Shown: one piece after another, positions 4,859 through 23,177 of the stretch
Numbering within the stretch: position 1 is the stretch's first letter
Layout: every line of letters begins with the position of its first letter
Assembly: GCF_030028105.1 (NCBI RefSeq)
Contig: NC_092376.1
Span: 163,710,212 to 163,774,211, forward strand
DNA length: 64,000 nt
Direction of reading: 5' to 3'
Origin: Mobula birostris
Taxonomy: Eukaryota
The notes under the pieces: generated by a model
Databases searched by the model: none
What the model saw: only the letters and a program-made list of their open reading frames with translations
Told to the model about the DNA's origin: nothing
Position numbers and translations under genes: made by a program

Positions 4859-6700
4859 ATAGAAATATAGAAACATAGAAAATAGGTGCAGGAGTAGGCC
4901 ATTCGGCCCTTCGAGCCTGCACCGCCATTCAGTACAATCATGGCTGATCATCCAACTCAGAACCCTGTACCTGCCTTCTCTCCACACCCCCGATCCCTTT
5001 AGCCACAAGGGCCATATCTAACTCCCTCTTAAATATAGCCAATGAACTGGCCTCAACTGTTTCCTGTGGCAGAGAATTCCACAGATTCACCACTCTCTGT
5101 GAGAAGAAGTTTTTCCTCATCTCTGTCCTAAAAGGCTTCCCCTTTATCCTCAAACTGTGACCCCTCGTTTTGGACTTCCCCAACATCAGGAACAATCTTC
5201 CTGCATCTAGCCTGTCCAATCCCCTCAGAATTTTATACGTTTCAATCAGATCCCCCCTCAATCTTCTAAATTCCAGCGAGTATAAGCCTAGTCGATCCAG
5301 TCTTTCTGTATATGAAAGTCCTGCCATCCCAAGAATCAATCTGGTGAACCTTTTTTGTACTCCCTCTATGGCAAGAATGTCTTTCCTCAGATTAGGGGAC
5401 CAAAACTGCACACAATACTCCAGGTGTGGTCTCACCAAAGCCTTGTACAACTGCAGTAGAACCTCCCTGCTCCTGTATTTGAATCCTCTTGCTATGAATG
5501 CCAGCATACCATTCGCCTTTTTCACCGTCTGCTGTACCTGCATGCCCACTTTCAATGACTGGTGTACAATGACACCCAGGTCTCGTTGCACCTCCCCTTT
5601 TCCTAATCGGCCACCATTCAGATAATAATCTGTTTTCCTGTTCTTGCCACAAAAGTGGATAAACTCACATTTATCCACATTAAATTGCATCTGCCATGAA
5701 ATTGCCCACTCACCTAACCTATCCAAGTCACCCTGCATCCTCTTAGCATCCTCCTCACAGCTAACAGTGCCTCCCAGCTTCATGTCATCCGCAAACTTGG
5801 AGATGCTGCATATAGTTCCCTCGTCTAAGTCATTAATATATATTGTAATCAACTGGGGTCCCAGCACTGAGCCTTGCGGTACCCCACTAGCCACCGCCTG
5901 CCATTCTGAAAAGGTCCCGTTTATTCCCACTCTTTGCTTCCTGTCTGCCAACCAATTCTCTATCCACATCAATACTATACCCCCAATACCATGTGCTTTA
6001 AGTTTGCACACTAATCTCCTGTGTGGGACCTTGTCAAAAGCCTTTTGAAAATCCAAATATACCACATCCACTGGTTCTCCCCTATCCACTCTACTAGTTA
6101 CATCCTCAAAAAATTCTATGAGATTCGTCAGACATGATTTTCCTTTCACAAATCCATGCTGACTTTGTCTGATGATTTCACCGCTTTCCAAATGTCCTGT
6201 TATCACATCTTTGATAACTGACACCAGCATTTTCCCCACCACCGATGTCAGACTTACCAGTCTATAACTCCCCAGTTTCTCTCTCCCTCCTTTTTTAAAT
6301 ACCGGGGTTACATTAGCCACCCTCCAATCCTCAGAAACTAATCCAGAAGAGTTTTGAAAAATTATCACCAATGCATCCACTATTTCTTGGGCCACTTCCT
6401 TAAGCATCTGGGATGCAGACCATCTGGCTCTGGGGATTTATTTGCCTTTAATCCCTTCAATTTACCTAACAGCACTTCCCTACTAACATGTATTTCCTTC
6501 AGTTCCTCCATTTCACTAGACCCTCGGTCCCCTACTATTTCCGGAAGATTATTTATGTCCTCCTTAGTGAAAACAGAACCGAAGAAGTTATTCAATTGGT
6601 CTGCCATGTCCTTGTTCCCCATGATCAGTTCATCTGTTTCTGACTGTAAGGGACCTACATTTGTCTTAACCAATCTTTTTCTTTTCACATATCTATAAAA
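4859..6700 (-). mobile_element. CR1 LINE, 5'-truncated, relatively young
   Basis: ORF2 pieces 6380-6688 and 4938-6407 are joined by a frameshift. The 3' tail is an (atagaaac)n-type microsatellite at 4859-4882. Confidence 0.95.
4938..6688 (-). pseudogene. CR1 ORF2 reverse transcriptase domain (partial, frameshifted near 6400)
   Basis: Motifs QHGFVKGKSCLTNL, YLDFQKAFDKVPH, GVPQGSVLGP, KFADD, RPHLEYCVQFWSP. Confidence 0.95.
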
Positions 6701-9239: not shown

Positions 9240-10145
9240 CTTTCTGGCCTCTGGTTTCCTCCTCCTAAAGTCAATAATAAGCTCCTTGTTCTTGCTGATA
9301 TTGTGTAAGAGCTTGGCATGGCACCACTCAGCCAGATCACTAATCTCCCTCCTACGTGCTGATTTGTCACCACCTTTCATTCAGCCTACAACAGTGGTGT
9401 CATCAGCAAACTTTAATATGGCATTGGGCCTGTGCTTAGACACACAGTCATAAGTGTAAAGTGAATAGATCAGGGGGCTAAGTATACAGTCTTGCGATCC
9501 ACCTGTGCTGATGGAGCTTGTGGAGGAGATGTTGTTGCCAATCCCAATTGACAGGGGTCTGCAAGTGAGGAAATCGAGGATCCAATTGCACAAGGAGGGA
9601 ATGAGGTCAAGGTCTTGAAGCTTATTGGTTAGCTTTGAGAGGATGAAGATATTAAATGCCAAGCTGTGGTCAATAATGAGCATCCTGATGCATGTATCTT
9701 TGCTGTCCAGATGTTCCAGGGTTGAGTGAAGAGCCAGTGAGATGGCATCTGCTCTGGACCTGTTGCACCAGTAGGCAAATTGGACTGGATTCTAGTCTCT
9801 TCTCAGGAAGAGGTTGATATATTATCCTTCTTGTTATATATTATCCTTCTTGCATGCATTACTAAATGACAATAAAAGGGGACTGCGTGTCCTCATAATC
9901 ATAATAATAATATTTCAACACCAACCTCTCAAAGCAGTTCACCACTGAGGATGTAAGTGCTACTGGATGACACTCATTAAGGCAGGTTACCACATTCTTC
10001 TTAGGTACCGATTATAATTGAAGCCTGCTTGAAGCAGGTGTGTAGCTCATACTGCCAAGGTGAGGCATTAATGATCTCAGTGAACACTTCAGTCAGTTGA
10101 TCAGTACAGGTTTTTATGATTTGGCCAGGTACCCAATCTGGGCCG
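9240..10145 (-). mobile_element. Rex1/Babar-like LINE RT fragment, interrupted by the Gypsy element
   Basis: ORF 9381-9683 reads LCNWILDFLTCRP...LSPLIYSLYTYDC...KFADDTTVVG. It continues after 14697, collinear with the copy at 28000-28820. Confidence 0.85.
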
Positions 10146-10375
10146 TGTGGTAAGCCATGTATATATGTTGTAACTGGGTTACCTGTCTGGACACACCCCT
10201 CTGCTGACTGCCCCTGTGGCTCCTCCCACAGAGTCCTGTGTAAAGGTGTTCGCCTTGCCCCTCCCCCTCAGTCCGGGGGCAGACACTCACTATGGAGGTC
10301 GTATTGTACAGCGAATAAAAGCCTTTCAGTATTTTTACCAAACCTCAGTCTTTTGGAGTAATTGAAGGTGCTTCA
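10146..10375 (+). repeat. 5' LTR (230 bp)
   Basis: TGTGGTAA...GCTTCA with AATAAA at 10314. By manual alignment it differs from the 3' LTR by 7 substitutions and 1 indel. Confidence 0.97.
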
Positions 10376-10401
10376 ATTTTATTCGCTGTACGTTTTAAAA
10401 C

Positions 10402-13400
10402 ATGGAACAGGCCCTGAGACCAGAAAAATTAGACCTCAATCCGCAAACACCTGAAGCTGGAAGCGCTTTCGAATTCTGGCTGGCCTGCTTCAAAGCGTAT
10501 CTAGAGGAGATTAAAGCGACCGACCCCGTAGCGAAGCGCAGAGTTCTACTCTCCAGAGTCAGTCCACGGGTCTATTCGCTGATCAGAGACCAGCCGAACT
10601 ATGACGGCGCAATTGACACACTCAAAAGGCAATACCTGCGGCCGATAAACAGCGTCTATGCTCGGCATCGCTTAGCGACACGGCAACAACGGTCCGGGGA
10701 ATCGAGTGCTGAGTTCGTCCAGGCCCTACGGACACTCGTGCCAGCCTGCAATTGCCAGGAGCTGACGGCGGCGCAGCATGCAGAACTCCTAGTGAGAGAC
10801 GCCTTCGTTACGGGGACCAGGTCAGTGTACGTGCGCCAGCAGCTGCTGGAAAAAGTCGATCTTACCCTAAGTTCGACGATCGAGCTGGCCGACACACTGG
10901 AGGCTGCTCTGCATAACTCCGAGGCCCTCCAGGCACGCGATCCCCCGATGGCCTTGCGGGTGCCGCAGACCCCACAACCCGCCGGCGAATCAACCTCGGC
11001 TGCCTCCAGTCGTGAGTCCGCGAAGTGCTACTTCTGCGGACTGGAGAAGCACCCTCGGAAATGCTGCCCAGCCGGACAAGCTACCTGTTCCAGCTGCAGA
11101 AAGAAGGGCCACTTCACCAAGGTCTGTAAGTCAAAACTGCGAGCGGGATCGAGCAGCGCCGCGTGCGAGTCGTGGGGGTCGCCATCTTCCCTGCACACGG
11201 CCACCACGTGCGAGACATGAGGGCCGCCATCTTGCTTGCCGCCATCTTCCCTGCACGCCGCCACCACGTGCGAGACATGGGGGCCGCCATCTTGCTTGCC
11301 GCCATCTTCCCTGCACGCCGCCACCACGTGCGAGACATGGGAGCGGCCAGCTTGGTCGGCGCCACCTCCCACCGCCTACGACCAACAGGTGCTCACGGGG
11401 CACCCCACCACGCCGGACCAAGACAGCGACCCCAGCCTGGCTTCCGTGACCCTCAACCAAAGCACTCCCCACCAGCTCGCAAGGTCAATGATGGACATCC
11501 TGGTGGAGGGGCACAGGACAAGCTGCCTGTTTGACACAGGCAGCACGGAGAGTTTTATCCACCCGGCCACGGTGCAGCATTGTGGACTCATTATACGGCC
11601 GGTAAGTCGGAGGGTCACCACGGCCTCCAGGTCGCATACAACAGACATCCGGGGGGGTTGTGTAGCGACACTAGTGGTGCAGGGCACAGAATATCGGGAC
11701 TTTACGTTACTGGTCTTGCCTCAACTGTGTGCCCCTGTGCTGTTGGGGTTGGACTTCCAGAGCCACCTGAAAAACGTGACAATGAAGTATGATGGGCCCC
11801 TCCCACCAATTACTGCCATAAATCCCCTGTTTCGTGGAGATATGTCACGTACCCCGCTACTGACCACCCACACACACCGACCCGCGCATCCCACCCAACA
11901 TCATGCCAACTACCACACTATTGACACCACTTGCGGCCTCTCCACCCTCAGGATCCCTCCCCCACCGCTGTTTGCCAACCTGACCCCCGACTGTAAACCT
12001 GTTGCAACTAAAAGCAGGAGGTACAGCGCGGGGGACAGAGCTTTCATTAAGTCGGAGGTGCAGCGGCTGCTCAGGGAGGGGGTCATTGAGGCAAGCACAA
12101 GTTCTTGGAGGGCGCAGGTGGTGGTTGTTCGGAACGGGGAAAAGAATAGGATGGTCGTGGACTATAGCCAGACCATCAATAGGTTCACGCAGCTCGACGC
12201 GTACCCTCTACCCCGCAACGCGGATATGGTCAATCAGATAGCACAGTACAAGGTGTACTCGACCATAGACCTAAAATCCGCTTACCATCAGCTCCCCATC
12301 CACTGGGAGGAACGCCCTTACACTGCCTTCGAGGCGGACGGCAGGCTTTATCAATTCCTGCACGTCCCCCTTGGCATCACGAATGGTGTATCTGTCTTCC
12401 AGAGGGCAATGGACCGGATGGTGGACAAATGCCAACTGAAGGCCACGTTCCCATATCTGGATAACATCACCATCTGCGGTCACGACCAGCAGGATCATGA
12501 CAACAACCTCCAAAAATTTCTCCAAGCGGCCAAATCTTTCAACCTTACCTATAACAAGGACAAGTGTGTATTTGGGACCACCCGACTTGCTATCCTTGGG
12601 TGTGTCGTGGAGAATGGAGTCATTGGCCCTGACGCCGACCATATGTGCCCCTTGTTGGAACTCCCTCTTCCCAACACCCTCAGAGCCCTCAAAAGGTGCC
12701 TGGGCTTCTTTTCATATTATGCCCAATGAGTCTCTAACTATGCAGACAAGGCCCGCCCCCTGGTCAAGTCCACCACATTCCCCCTCTCTGCCGAGGCCCA
12801 CGCGGCCTTCAACCGCATAAAAGGGGACATTGCCAAAGCAGCAACGCATGCGGAGGATGAGGCCAGTCCCTTCCAAGTAGAGAGTGACGCCTCCGACTTT
12901 GCGCTGGCTGCTACCCTCAACCAGGCAGGAAGACCAGTGGCGTTCTTCTCCCGTACCCTTCAAGGCCCTGAAATTCGGCACTCTGCGGTAGAGAAAGCGG
13001 CCCAGGCCATAGTGGAAGCTATAAGGCACTGGAGGCACTATCTTGCCGGCAAAAGGTTCACCCTGCTAACTGACCAGCGCTCAGTCGCATTCATGTTTAA
13101 TAATCAGCAGCAGAGCAAAATCAAAAATGATAAAATTCTGAGGTGGAGAATCGAACTCCCCACCTACAACTATGACATCATGTACAGGCCTGGGAAGCTC
13201 AACAAGCCCTCCGATGCCCTATCCCGGGGAACATGCGCCAGCGCGCAGATCGACCGGCTATACGCCCTACATGTAGACCTTTGCCACCCGAGAGTCACCC
13301 AGCTTTTCCACTTCGTGAAAGCTCAGAACCTGCCTTACTCCCTTGAGGAGATCACGATGATGATCAGGGGCTGCCAAGTCTGCGCAGAGTGCAAACCACA

Positions 13401-14397
13401 CCTCTACCGACCCGAAAAGGCACCACTCCTCAAGGCCACCCGCCCCTTTGAGCGACTGAGTGTTGACTTTAAGGGCCCCCTTCCCTCCACCGACGGCAAT
13501 GTGTACTTTCTTAACGTAATTGACGAGTACTCGTGGTTCCCCTTCGCCATCCCCTGCCCCGACACCACTACCACGTCAGTTATAAAAGCCCTGCGCAAGC
13601 TCTTCACTCTGCTCGGATACCCATGCTATATCCACAGTGACAGAGGGTCCTCGTTTATGAGTGACGAGCTGCACCAATATCTACTGGCTAGGGGAATTGC
13701 AACCAGTAGGACCACGAGCTATAATCCCCGGGGGAGTGGACAGGTGGAAAAGGAGAATGCCATGGTGTGGAAGGCCACACTCTTAGCCCTCAGGTCAAAG
13801 GGACTGCTGGTCTCTCGCTGTCAGGAGGTCCTTCCCGAGGCACTCCACTCCATCCGCTCCCTGTTATGCACAGCTACCAATGCCACCCCTCATGAGCGGC
13901 TCTTTTCTTTTCCCAGAAAATCGACCACTGGAACCACCCTACCATCTTGGCTGACGTCCCCGGGGCCAGTGCTGCTCCGGAAACATGCGAGGAGCAATAA
14001 ATACTCCCCAATAGTCGAGAGGGTTCACTTACTTCATGCGAATCCTCAGTATGCCTACGTGGTTTTACCTGATGGGCGGGAGGACACGGTCTCCATCCGC
14101 GACCTGGCACCCGCAGGATCTCCGGGCCCCTACCCTGAACACTCCGTGGTGACTATTGACCCTGTACCCACCAATGTATGTATCTACGAGACACCGTGCA
14201 CCCCAAACCCTATACAGATACCACACGACACTCCCATACTGGGCGCGACGCACACGCACGAGGGATTACCGACGCCTAACGTGCTAGCACCTGAAGTCAG
14301 GCCGGAGCCAGCACAACTGCCATCGCCGGTGCAATCACCGCTGGTGCTACGTAGATCACAGCGACGGACTCGACCGCCTGATAGACTTAACCTGTAA
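10402..14397 (+). pseudogene. Gag-Pol polyprotein, single frame with two premature TGA codons (11218, 12727)
   Basis: ORFs 10402, 11236 and 12937 share one frame. Motifs: two CCHC knuckles, protease LFDTGS, RT IDLKSAYHQL and YLDN, RNase H ESDAS, integrase HHCC plus SVDFKGP, HSDRGS and GQVEKEN. Confidence 0.95.
11179..11340 (+). repeat. 60-bp in-frame tandem repeat (about 2.7 copies) between Gag and protease
   Basis: Unit gccgccatcttccctgcacgccgccaccacgtgcgagacatgggggccgccatcttgctt, encoding PPSSLHAATTCETWGPPSCL. Confidence 0.95.
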
Positions 14398-14448
14398 ATA
14401 TGCTTCTTGTAAATATTGTCAGTCACTTCACCCCGCGGGACTCTTTTT

Positions 14449-14467
14449 AAAAAAAAGGAGGGGTGAA
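14449..14467 (+). other. Polypurine tract
   Basis: aaaaaaaaggaggggtgaa lies immediately 5' of the 3' LTR. Confidence 0.85.
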
Positions 14468-14696
14468 TGTGGTAAACCATGTTTATATGTTGTAACTCGG
14501 TTACCTGTCTGGACACACCCCTCTGCTGACTGCCCCTGTGGCTCCTCCCACAGAGTCCTGTATAAAGGTGTCGCCTTGCCCCTCCCCCTCAGTCCGGGGG
14601 CAGACACTCACTGTGGTGGTCGTATTGTACAGCGATTAAAAGCCTTTCAGTATTTTTACCAAACCTCAGTCTTTTGGAGTAATTGAAGGTGCTTCA
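14468..14696 (+). repeat. 3' LTR (229 bp)
   Basis: Direct repeat of 10146-10375, with TATAAA at 14561 and an ATTAAA poly(A) variant at 14635. Confidence 0.97.
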
Positions 14697-15156
14697 GGCC
14701 GGATGCTTTTAAGGGTTCACTCTCCTGAAGGCTGCTCACACGTTGGCCTCAGGTGCTGAAATCGCAGGATTGGCAGGGGCTGTGTGAGTTTATTATGGTT
14801 CCTCCCATGTACAGACATTACGGAGCTTAGTGTCATTTTTGGGTGTAAAATCAATTTACGTAACATGCTATCTTATGCATTTATAAATATTTTGTTTTTT
14901 AAATGATTCTTGTGTCTATTATCTCATTGAGTTTTTTATGAGCTGCATCAAATCGAGAGTAACAAATATGTCATCTCCTTTATACTTGCATACTTGAAAT
15001 GACATTAAACAATCTTGATCTTGAAATACAAGTCAGATGGCTAAATATTCACTCACTGTGAAGACTGTCCAAATGAGGAGGCAAAAATGGGAAGAAGATG
15101 AGAGGAGATAGGAAAGAAGTAAAATTAGATGAGGAATCTTTGCTAGACTATTTTCA

Positions 15157-16025
15157 GTGGGGTCAGTGTTGGGACCACTTCTTTTTATGCTGTATATAAA
15201 TGATTTAGATGATGGAATCGATGACTTTGTTGCCAAGTTTGAAGATAATACAAAGATTGTTGGAGGGACAGGTAGGGTTAAGGAAACAGGTAGGATGCAG
15301 AAAAACTTAGACAGATTAGGAGAATGGGCAACAAAGTGGCAAATGAAATACAATGTTGGAAAATGCATGGTAATGCACTTTGGTAGAAGAAATAAATGTG
15401 CGGACTATTTTCTATATGTGGAGAAAATCCAGGATGTAATGCTGAGGCTTTATAAAGCACTGGTGAGGCCTCACCTTGAGTATTGTGAACAGTTTTGAGC
15501 CCCTCATCTTAGAAAAGATTGGAGAAGATCCAGAGGAGGTTCACAAGGATGATTCCAGGAATAAAAAGGTTATCATACGAGGAACGGTTAATGGTTCTGG
15601 GTCTGTACTTGCTGGAATTCAGATGGATGAGGGGGGATCTCATTGAAACCTTTCGAATGTTGAAAGGCCTAGACAGAGTAGGTGTGGAAAGGATGTTTCC
15701 CATGGTGGGAGTGTCCAGGAGAAGAGGGCACAGCCTCGGGATAGAGGGGCGCCCTTTTAAAACAAAGATGCAGGGAAATTTCTTTAGCCAAAGGGTGGTG
15801 AATTTGTGGAATTTGTTGCCACATGTAGCTGTGGAGGCCTGGTCACTGGGTGTATTTAAGGCAGAGATTGATAGGTTCTTGATTAGACATGGGATCAAAA
15901 GTTACTGGGAGAAAGCCAGGAACTGGGGTTGAGGAGGAGAAAAAAAAAGATCAGCCACGATCGAATGGCAGAGCAGACTCGATGGGCCTGGTGGCCTAAT
16001 TCTGCTCCTATGTCTTAGGGTCTTA
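15157..16025 (+). mobile_element. CR1 LINE 3' fragment with internal deletions
   Basis: GSVLGPLLFMLYINDLD, RPHLEYC, RGDLIETFR, FFSQRVVNLWN and a CR1-type 3' UTR. Confidence 0.92.
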
Positions 16026-16232
16026 TAAAGTCCAGCAGCATTCTGTCACTCATGATGTATCAGCTAATGGAAATCAAGACAAGAAGGATATCAAATAGGA
16101 AAAGTATAGCTTTTGTGAAAAAATGTATTTCAAATAGCACTTTATCTTTTAAAAGCCATTTTGTCGACATCGTTACGCTGCAAACAGCATACACTAATAT
16201 ATCCTGCAGCCCTTTTTTTAATGGAAGTTACC

Positions 16233-20381: not shown

Positions 20382-20573
20382 GCAAACACGAGGAATTCTG
20401 CAGATGCTGGAAATTCAAGCAACACACATCAAAGTTGCTGGTGAATGCAGCAGGCCAGGCAGCATCTCTAGGAAGAGTCCTGGCGAAGGGTCTCAGCCTG
20501 AACGTCGACCGTACCTCTTCCTAGAGATGCTGCCTGGCCTGCTGCGTTCACCAGCAATTTTGATGTGCGTTGC
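20382..20573. mobile_element. Fold-back mini Penelope derivative
   Basis: Inverted arms of about 60 bp of pseudo-LTR sequence surround a degenerate hammerhead. Perfect 14-bp TSD taatgcattctttc at 20368-20381 and 20574-20587. Confidence 0.85.
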
Positions 20574-20739
20574 TAATGCATTCTTTCACCTCTTTTAGGA
20601 TAAAGATTGATTGAATATAATATATAAAAACTCAATAAGTAAAAAATATTTTGATGTTGTAATTCATTATTTCCTGGAGAAACTGTCCAAGGCCTATTCT
20701 CCTTAGCCCTTCCCTCCAAACGACACAGGGTAGGTTGAC

Positions 20740-20965: not shown

Positions 20966-21309
20966 GATGGATGGATGCACTAAAGAAAGACTATTAATTC
21001 TAGAGGTGATGTCTGCACTATAGTAATTATAATGAAGTGAAATTTAAGATAAAGATTTTGCATGCCACAGTCCTAAGCAGACACTGGATTGCATAGAGGG
21101 TGAGAGAGTTCAAGTGGAGCAGCCATTGTGTGAGTGGGCCAGTGTTGGAGTGGGGAGCTGAGGATCTGGCTTATCAAGGCTTCAGTGAGGAGAGGTGTAG
21201 ACCATAGATAGGTTATTACCCATTATTTATTATTTATTTATTTCTTTTTGTGCATTTAGAGCAGTGAGGATGCTGAGGAGGATACTGAAATGTGCTGACA
21301 ATGGAAAAG

Positions 21310-21800
21310 TTTCAGAGCAGGTTCATGAAAATGGTTCCAGGAATGAAAGTCTTATTGTATGAGGAATGATTGATGGCTCTGGGCTCTATAGTTGCAGGGG
21401 GATGAAATTTAGAGGAATGAGGGGGTGAGGATCTCATTGAAACCTTTCGAATGTTGAAATGCCTAGATAGAATGGATGTGGAGAGGATCTTTCCTGTGGT
21501 GAGGAAGTCTAGAACAAAAGGCACAGCCTCAGAATAGAGTGACCCCCATTTAGAATAGAGATTATGAGGAATTTCTTTAGCTAGATGGTGGTGAATCTGC
21601 AGAATTCGTTAACACATGAGGCTGTGGAGGCCAGGTCATTGGGTGCATTTAAGACATAGGTTGATAGGTTTTTGATGAGTCAGGGTGTGAAAGGTTACAT
21701 GAAAAAGGCAAGAAAAATAGATCAGCCATGATGAAATGGCAGAGCAGTTTCAATGGACCGAATGGCATAATTCTGCCCCTACATCTTACGGTCTTATGGT
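21310..21800 (+). mobile_element. CR1 3' fragment
   Basis: Similar to 15520-16020. Confidence 0.85.
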
Positions 21801-21809
21801 CTGGCAGAC

Positions 21810-23177
21810 AGTGTTAAGGAGTTGGAGCTGGAACCAAATGAACCAGTGATATCGGTGAATCTGAAATCAGTTGTGGGAAAGTTAATGGAAGGTATTCTCA
21901 GGGACTTAATGTATAAGTATTTGGATGGACATGGACTGATTAAAGATAGTGGCTTTGTGCATACTAGATTTTGTCTAACCAATCTTAAAGAGTTCTTTGA
22001 GGAAGTTATCGGGAAAGTGGATGAAGGCAAGGCGATGGATGTTGTCCACGTGGACTTCAGCAAGGCATCTGATGAGGCCCTACTTGGGAGGTTGGCCAAG
22101 ATGGTTCAGTCGCTCAGCATTCAAGATGAGGTCATAAACTGGATTAGATATTGTGTTTGTGGGAGAAGCCAGAGAGTTGTAGTAGATGGTTGCCTCTCTG
22201 ACTGGAGGCCTGTGACCAGCGGAATATTGCAGAGATTGCTGCTAGGTCCTTTGTTGTTTGTCTTCTATGTAAGTGATCTGGATAATAAGATGGTTAAATG
22301 GATCAGCAAATCTTTGGATGACACCAAGATTGTGGGTGTAGTGAACAGTGAGGGAAGCTATTATGGCTTTCAGAGGGATCTAGACCAGCTGGAAAAATGT
22401 GCTGAAAAATGGCAGATAGAATTTAATGCAGACAACTGTGAGATTTTGCATTTCAGTAGGATCAATCAGGATAGGTCTTACACAGTTAATGGCTGGGCAC
22501 TAAAGAGTGTGGTAGAACAAAGTGATCTGGGGATACAGGTCTACAATTCATTGAAAGTGATGTCACAGGTAGAAAAGGTCATAAGGAAAGCTTTTGGCAC
22601 GTTGGCCTTCATAAGTCAATGTATTAAGTACAGGAGATGGGATGTTATGTTGAAGTTGTATAAGGTATTGTTGAGCCCTAATTTGGAGTACTGTGTGCAG
22701 TTTTTGGCCATCTACCTACAGGAAAGGTGTAAATCAGGTTGAACTACTACAGAGAAAATTTACAAGGATGTTGCTGGGTCTGGAGTACCCGAGTTATAAG
22801 GAAAGATTGAATAGGTTAGGACCTTATTCCTTAGAATTTAGAAGGTTGAGAAGAGATTTGATTTGATTTGATCAAGGTATACAAAATTATGAGGGGTGCA
22901 AACAGGCTTTTTCCACTGAGATTGGGTGGGACTACAACCAGAGGTCATGAGGTAAAGGTGAAAGGTAAAAAAATTTCAAAAGAACATGAGGGGAAACTCC
23001 TTCACTCAGAAGCTCATGAGAGTGTGGAACAAGCTGCCAGCACAAGTGGAAACATGGATGGTAGAAGGTATGGTCCCAGTGCAATTCAATGGGAGTAGCC
23101 AGTTTAAATGATTTGGACATGGACTAGATAGGCACAAAGAGCCTGTTTCTGTGCTGTACTTTTCTATGACTCTATGA
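21810..23177 (+). mobile_element. CR1 LINE fragment with degraded RT ORF (21822-22742)
   Basis: SVVGKLME, CLTNLKEFFEEV, VDFSKA, DDTKIVG, PNLEYCVQF and a (ctatga)n tail. Confidence 0.92.

Follow-up and report, generated by a model that had tools for sequence, protein, structure and literature searches.

The complementarity between the leader and the LTR of a Gypsy element in Mobula birostris is a real feature, conserved among its relatives, and it likely allows reverse transcription to start from the element's own RNA, working like Tf1 and without a tRNA. The element lies in the window, by which we mean the whole 64,000-nucleotide stretch analysed here, and is a full-length, broken copy of 4.55 kb (10146-14696). 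Its two LTRs, both TG...CA, differ by 7 substitutions and 1 gap over 230 nt, and a single reading frame in the order gag-PR-RT-RH-IN is interrupted by in-frame stops at 11218 and 12727 (Table 1). The TG...CA termini of the LTRs, the target duplication, the polypurine tract (PPT) and this gene order identify it as a Ty3/Gypsy LTR retrotransposon, and Ty3 Gag-Pol is the top solved-structure match of the lineage's profile.

Table 1. Features of the Gypsy element and its flanks, in window coordinates
Feature	Positions	Strand	Remarks
Left target-site duplication, GGCCG	10141-10145	+	flanks of the element
5' LTR, 230 bp, TG...CA	10146-10375	+	
TATA-box position	10239-10244	+	TGTAAA in the 5' LTR; TATAAA in the 3' LTR and in 49/56 family copies
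Initiator-like TCAGT; predicted start site 10270, 31 nt past the TATA position	10268-10272	+	inferred; spacing 31-33 nt in 52/56 copies
Pairing arm, likely self-primer, GTACAGCGAATAAAA	10306-10320	+	AATAAA at 10314-10319
Predicted inner stem	10321-10373	+	begins GCCT, pairs with AGGT close to the LTR end; CCT/AGGY pair in 12/18 families examined
AT after the terminal CA	10376-10377	+	mirrors AA preceding the 3' LTR; likely 2-nt cDNA overhang
Leader at the primer-binding-site position	10377-10391	+	exact arm complement, no TGG
gag	10402-11220	+	two zinc-knuckle motifs (11026, 11086); terminates at in-frame stop
Three 60-bp tandem repeats	11180-11370	+	gag/protease interval
Protease and reverse transcriptase	11488-12729	+	catalytic motif YLDN at 12454; in-frame stop 12727
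RNase H	12730-13092	+	
Integrase	13093-14397	+	no chromodomain match
Polypurine tract, then TGAA	14449-14467	+	
3' LTR	14468-14696	+	arm copy 14627-14641 has ATTAAA, no complementary partner downstream
Right target-site duplication, GGCCG	14697-14701	+	

Numerous decayed reverse-transcriptase pieces, which we take from their motifs to be of LINE type, surround the element on both strands (4938-6407, 9381-9683, 15187-16026 and 21302-22742). A short element with 60-nt arms, 95% complementary and 37 nt apart, occupies 20418-20574; given similar letters in other fetched stretches, it is probably a common repeat.

The leader/LTR complement in the window element

The original prediction of a 15-nt perfect complement was confirmed: the leader at 10377-10391 is the exact reverse complement of the LTR segment at 10306-10320, here called the arm, and a single A (10376) separates it from the LTR end. 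When leaders were shuffled (n=5000), none matched the LTR over 13 nt and the maximum was 12, and 11 of 5000 random adjacent pairs of 230- and 26-nt windows contained a match of at least 15 nt. The expected spacing of 26 nt between LTR and ATG holds as well (ATG at 10402), as does the claimed lack of a TGG-type tRNA primer site, TGG being absent from the first 8 nt past the 5' LTR. The arm copy in the 3' LTR, where ATTAAA stands in place of the AATAAA of the 5' LTR, was correctly said to have no partner downstream. Folding of the LTR/leader region (10270-10404) predicted a stable structure of -38.1 kcal/mol (z -3.7; 2 of 200 shuffles equally stable). It also returned the imperfect inner stem by which the pairing had been proposed to extend, yet in the minimum-energy fold this stem takes the last A of the arm, so that the two helices compete by one pair.

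Other Gypsy stretches in the same genome have a different junction. A TGG site follows the LTR in 14 of 20 such controls, each taken around another Gypsy integrase, and leader and LTR share a longest match of 5-10 nt in the 19 of them with a repeat pair. Loci L171-L190 include two or more further Gypsy groups that carry TGG primer sites; one of these groups is very young, having identical LTRs and 1515-codon frames in many copies.

It is very improbable that a tRNA, a tRNA half or another cellular small RNA primes the window element and that its LTR match is incidental. Most Gypsy elements do use tRNAs, and half-tRNA priming is described for Copia lineages (PMC6317226); no TGG, however, follows the LTR here, and the leaders vary among families, each tracking its own LTR. 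The longest match to 34 host tRNA genes is 6 nt, a weak comparison in that these genes cover 3 isotypes only (Lys, Cys and Thr) and two positive-control primer sites had no cognate tRNA in the set.

Conservation of the duplex among divergent families

A profile of 53 Pol proteins was used to collect relatives, and 80 metagenome loci were taken, the best 80 of 463 confirmed. A Gag match was present in 55 and absent from 25; ten of the 55 were dropped, leaving 45 in which the start of Gag and sufficient sequence upstream of it were available. Sorting by eye and by an RT tree placed these 45 and the window copy into 23 families (the window family and 22 from metagenome contigs), each represented by its best-paired copy.

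A perfect leader/LTR match of 10-18 nt was found in 35 of the 45 metagenome loci. The other ten were placed, by eye and by the RT tree, in families whose sister copy has the match, with the exception of L096, which pairs over 9 nt, has 2 mismatches and then pairs over 5 more. In L095 and L097 a short inverted-repeat element is inserted upstream of gag, within the arm, so that the arm retains only its last 6 nt. The apparent TGG primer site in L095, L097 and L101 was rejected, being the ATGG of gag.

When the longest inverted repeat was sought without an anchor, the leader arm fell at +2 past the CA in 21 of the 23 families and at +3 in the remaining 2, and 20 families beat the best of 40 leader shuffles. 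The loops between arm and leader span about 24-87 nt, and their letters differ among families. Leader positions +3 to +12 hold 227 Watson-Crick pairs, 3 mismatches and not one G-U among 230, against 32 G-U among 227 pairs in the predicted inner stems; this contrast is biased in favour of self-priming, as best-paired copies were picked after the match results and the inner stems are predicted only. In one locus, L038, a transversion present in both LTR arms is accompanied by the matching leader change, unlike in its sisters L039, L057 and L061; in L042 a change is present in both LTRs with the leader unaltered. The complementarity expected of relatives is kept in 23 families with wholly changed letters, its spacing from the LTR end being fixed.

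In 12 elements from 7 families whose LTR end is fixed by a direct repeat, AT follows the CA in all 12, AA precedes the 3' LTR in 11 and a 5-bp target duplication is present in 11; TGG occurred within 8 nt of the LTR in none of the 12 elements with both LTR ends defined. The ATG lies 15-45 nt past the LTR end (18 families). Contigs L065 and L093 have the arm as their very first bases, 55 nt ahead of the LTR end; we read this as an assembly k-mer overlap and rejected it as a mark of the start site. Among the viral contigs scanned there was no relative.

In the M. birostris genome, a DNA search for the window family gave 1839 candidates, 40 of them scored, and an exact-pattern search gave 400 copies with both arms perfect; the leader/arm match is perfect in 34 of 57 distinct fetched copies. 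A check for compensatory changes within this genome gave a null result, double CpG changes being compensated in 11 cases and not in 8 (p 0.32), with no excess of compensation. Among 20 copies chosen for their variants, arm changes were mostly confined to one LTR; only 2 copies were changed in both LTRs, and the leader base of each was the usual one. The window family is too young to display compensation well. Its closest named protein relatives come from rays.

Position of the arm and a candidate priming route

As further controls we used 20 stretches around chromodomain matches in the M. birostris genome, 15 of them with a readable junction. In these sushi-type elements (L283-L300) one G follows the CA, and the 11-nt leader that comes next is complementary to an arm in the LTR. 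This arm lies 166-283 nt from the LTR end and begins 31 nt past a TATA-like box in 11 of 15, an arrangement known from Tf1. In copies of the window family, TATAAA was present in 49 of 56, an initiator-like A followed 31-33 nt later in 52 of 56, and the arm began 67-69 nt past the TATA in 55 of 56 (67 nt in the window element). This spacing of 67 nt against 31 nt speaks for an internal arm, which probably lies about 36 nt inside the transcript rather than at the RNA 5' end. On the other side, LTRs of the metagenome families showed no consistent TATA spacing. For the window family we lean towards an RNA start near 10270 and a capped primer of about 50 nt, of which the last 14-15 nt would pair, in place of an 11-nt 5' end.

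A possible alternative geometry, which falls within the probability that we give to self-priming as such, has transcription starting at the arm itself (AG at 10310), so that an 11-nt primer would form the RNA 5' end as in Tf1, whose primer is the first 11 bases (PMC7175516). The eleventh and tenth positions before the arm end are A in 18 and G in 21 of the 23 families, and an AG stands precisely there in 17 of 23 against a background of 4.7%; pairing also weakens past about 13 nt. Yet pairing goes on upstream of the conserved AG, in 21, 20 and 15 of 23 families at the next three positions, and in the window family the TATAAA and its initiator point to a start well upstream of the arm, at the same 31 nt that separates TATA from arm in the chromodomain elements. 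The conserved AG was also considered as a splice acceptor. We rejected this reading, since unspliced bases upstream of the AG take part in the pairing with the leader.

Priming from the arm copy of the 3' LTR at the RNA 3' end, folding back or acting in trans and trimmed after the arm, is unlikely. The arm is present in both LTRs, its two copies are indistinguishable by sequence alone, and an RNA from 10270 to past the poly(A) signal would carry it at both ends. The 5' arm, however, sits only about 24-87 nt away from the leader, a predicted stem connects the two, and the Tf1 precedent employs the 5' copy (PMC7175516, bioRxiv 2022.12.06.519325).

In the route that we favour, the arm of the 5' LTR would anneal to the leader directly beyond the LTR end and prime minus-strand synthesis. 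In Tf1, RNase H cuts after the 11-nt primer (PMC7175516); by analogy, the element's RNase H would probably cut the arm at its 3' end and free a 3'-OH. The cut would fall at 10319/10320 or 10320/10321, right after AAUAAA, with an overhang of 2 or 1 nt past the CA. Retroviral cDNA ends carry two extra bases; if the AA/AT pattern likewise stands for two extra bases on both cDNA ends, the primer would end at 10319, immediately behind the AAUAAA. Even when no tRNA site is present, synthesis must begin beside the LTR end, the very place at which the duplex is fixed. The first strand transfer could then rely on the short segment that runs from the cut to the poly(A) site. In retroviral plus-strand synthesis the primer site is copied from the primer, and here the same step would copy the arm-derived primer back into the leader every round; the match would thereby stay strictly Watson-Crick, which would explain the missing G-U pairs and the paired change in L038. 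Where duplex and hexamer overlap, the pairing may also mask the AAUAAA of the 5' LTR.

That overlap does not hold throughout the lineage. The arm ends in AATAAA or ATTAAA in 13 of 23 families, and the hexamer is absent there from the other 10, of which 3 have a canonical one further down the loop. Each of the arm's final three positions holds an A in 21-22 of 23 families, C, C and T stand at +2 to +4 in 18-19 of 23, and a CCT/AGGY stem adjoining the duplex can form in 12 of 18 examined. This pattern suggests that the conserved thing is the duplex end with its neighbouring stem, which likely is the cleavage site. In the L062 family the arm lacks a poly(A)-like hexamer and still pairs over 15 nt. 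With the hexamer overlapping in 13 of 23 families only, masking of the poly(A) signal is at most a second role; for the window family, hiding of the signal in the 5' LTR alone is plausible.

Could the hairpin solely mask the 5' poly(A) signal, or set translation, while priming takes another, unseen route? The hexamer at the arm end, a partner that is present only after the 5' LTR and the ATG close to the LTR end would all suit such a role. We nevertheless consider it improbable, as the duplex is kept in the 10 families without an arm hexamer, including the 3 that have theirs downstream, masking would not require a stem to begin precisely at 2-3 nt beyond the LTR end, nor to shun G-U, and no other primer site is visible. 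Priming without a tRNA in a non-sushi element is the supported part of the original prediction. Its comparison with Tf1 would hold for the kind of priming but probably not for the exact layout, promoter motifs putting the start about 36 nt upstream of the arm, and its poly(A) partner does not generalize.

Relationship to known self-priming elements

As had been predicted, no Chromo or SH3_Tf2-1 domain was found in the window integrase, and none in 14 of 14 full-length relatives. The lineage was placed by an RT tree of 73 rows, which included 20 family representatives, 20 deeper proteins, 8 RTs of chromodomain elements, tRNA-primed controls and 3 stand-ins that we judged Mag-like from their motifs. 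One branch (SH-aLRT 99) unites the 20 representatives with the 20 deeper proteins, the 8 chromodomain-element RTs form a separate one (SH-aLRT 100), and the base of the tree is without resolution. A sister relation to the chromodomain elements, which stand in for labelled Tf1/sushi-ichi, was not rejected (p-AU 0.71); nor was one to the three Mag-like RTs, used without labelled Mag, SURL or Gulliver sequences (p-AU 0.86), which the lineage did not join with support. The AU tests revealed better trees than the quick tree search had found. Several deeper relatives (P0201, P0207, P0228, P0240, P0253, P0259 and others) have different Gag N-termini and fall in the same RT clade.

Tf1 and Tf2 of Schizosaccharomyces pombe, Tj1, Tosmo/Tcry and the Tf1/sushi chromoviruses likewise lack a tRNA site and have a leader complementary to an LTR segment. 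This group shares with the window lineage a duplex of at least 11 nt and a further stem in the enclosed loop (PMC7175516, PMC4600332, bioRxiv 2022.12.06.519325). Unlike it, the window lineage has no chromodomain, forms its own RT clade in which YxDN is common, and often ends its arm in a poly(A) hexamer. Its RT is 25-31% identical to those of the chromodomain elements in the M. birostris genome. The arm is probably internal, 67 nt after the TATA as opposed to 31 nt, and about 24-87 nt separate arm and leader, compared with an arm 166-283 nt from the LTR end in the chromodomain elements. There was no sign of the third duplex that completes the Tf1 'pretzel': in 18 of the 23 families, a simple contiguous-helix test gave a mean pairing 3' of the leader of 6.4 bp, the same as shuffled (6.4). 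With a leader/LTR complement but no chromodomain and a separate RT branch, the lineage would work like Tf1/sushi without being a member, and the geometry suggests that its self-priming likely had an independent origin.

In Mag-type animal Gypsy elements, as in the window element, a single compact ORF encodes two zinc knuckles, one residue is inserted behind the 'DY' of the RT, and there is no chromodomain. Mag elements carry tRNA sites, however, and the window lineage has none. Beyond these groups, self-priming is predicted from leader/LTR complements in the plant lineages Tcn1 (Gypsy) and TAR (Copia) (PMC6317226). The latter indicates that self-priming can arise outside chromoviruses, as proposed for the window lineage; both differ from it in host and clade, Tcn1 having chromodomains and TAR being Copia. 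The fungal GalEa Conserved Hairpin Site, bivalve TRIMs and Dictyostelium Skipper also have no tRNA site, but they either lack inverted repeats or have them within the internal region (PMC6934838, PMC5006619), whereas in the window lineage one arm is in the LTR.

In the literature covered, Gypsy self-priming is treated as a mark of Tf1/sushi chromoviruses, and searches that took in PMC3601003, PMC6238403, PMC2864245, PMC2836005 and PMC5341516 found no account of it in a chromodomain-free animal Gypsy clade; curation of the lineage in Repbase, Dfam or GyDB is possible. Motifs of the lineage were absent from the searched supplements of PMC6238403 and PMC8556966, which bear on the named mollusc, annelid and tunicate clades MolGy, PolGy and Cigr-1; one and three further files, respectively, may name the clade. 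This is likely a known mechanism with a probably different geometry, in a clade for which we found no report. The named protein relatives come from rays, sharks, crustaceans, spiders, corals, molluscs and flatworms.

A chromodomain-free clade that primes itself would, if true, break the link between self-priming and chromoviruses, and it would matter to the question whether hairpin priming is ancient or has arisen repeatedly. An internal primer would mean that a 5'-terminal position is not needed, and M. birostris carries both layouts, the probably internal arm and the Tf1-like arm, for comparison in one host. The lineage would presumably escape tRNA-fragment silencing aimed at primer sites, and annotation tools that require a tRNA site would miss or mis-score it. 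Only tentatively do we put forward the whole picture: a large animal Gypsy clade without chromodomains that evolved self-priming independently, cuts its primer inside R after the poly(A) hexamer, uses one duplex to prime, to set the cDNA end and to silence the 5' poly(A) site, and has an RT that mostly reads YxDN in place of YxDD.

The frequent YxDN is a second oddity of the lineage. A literature search for YLDN with reverse transcriptase found no match. The window motif is YLDN (12454-12465), 117 of 168 database RTs of the window type with a readable motif end in DN, and most of the metagenome loci share this ending.
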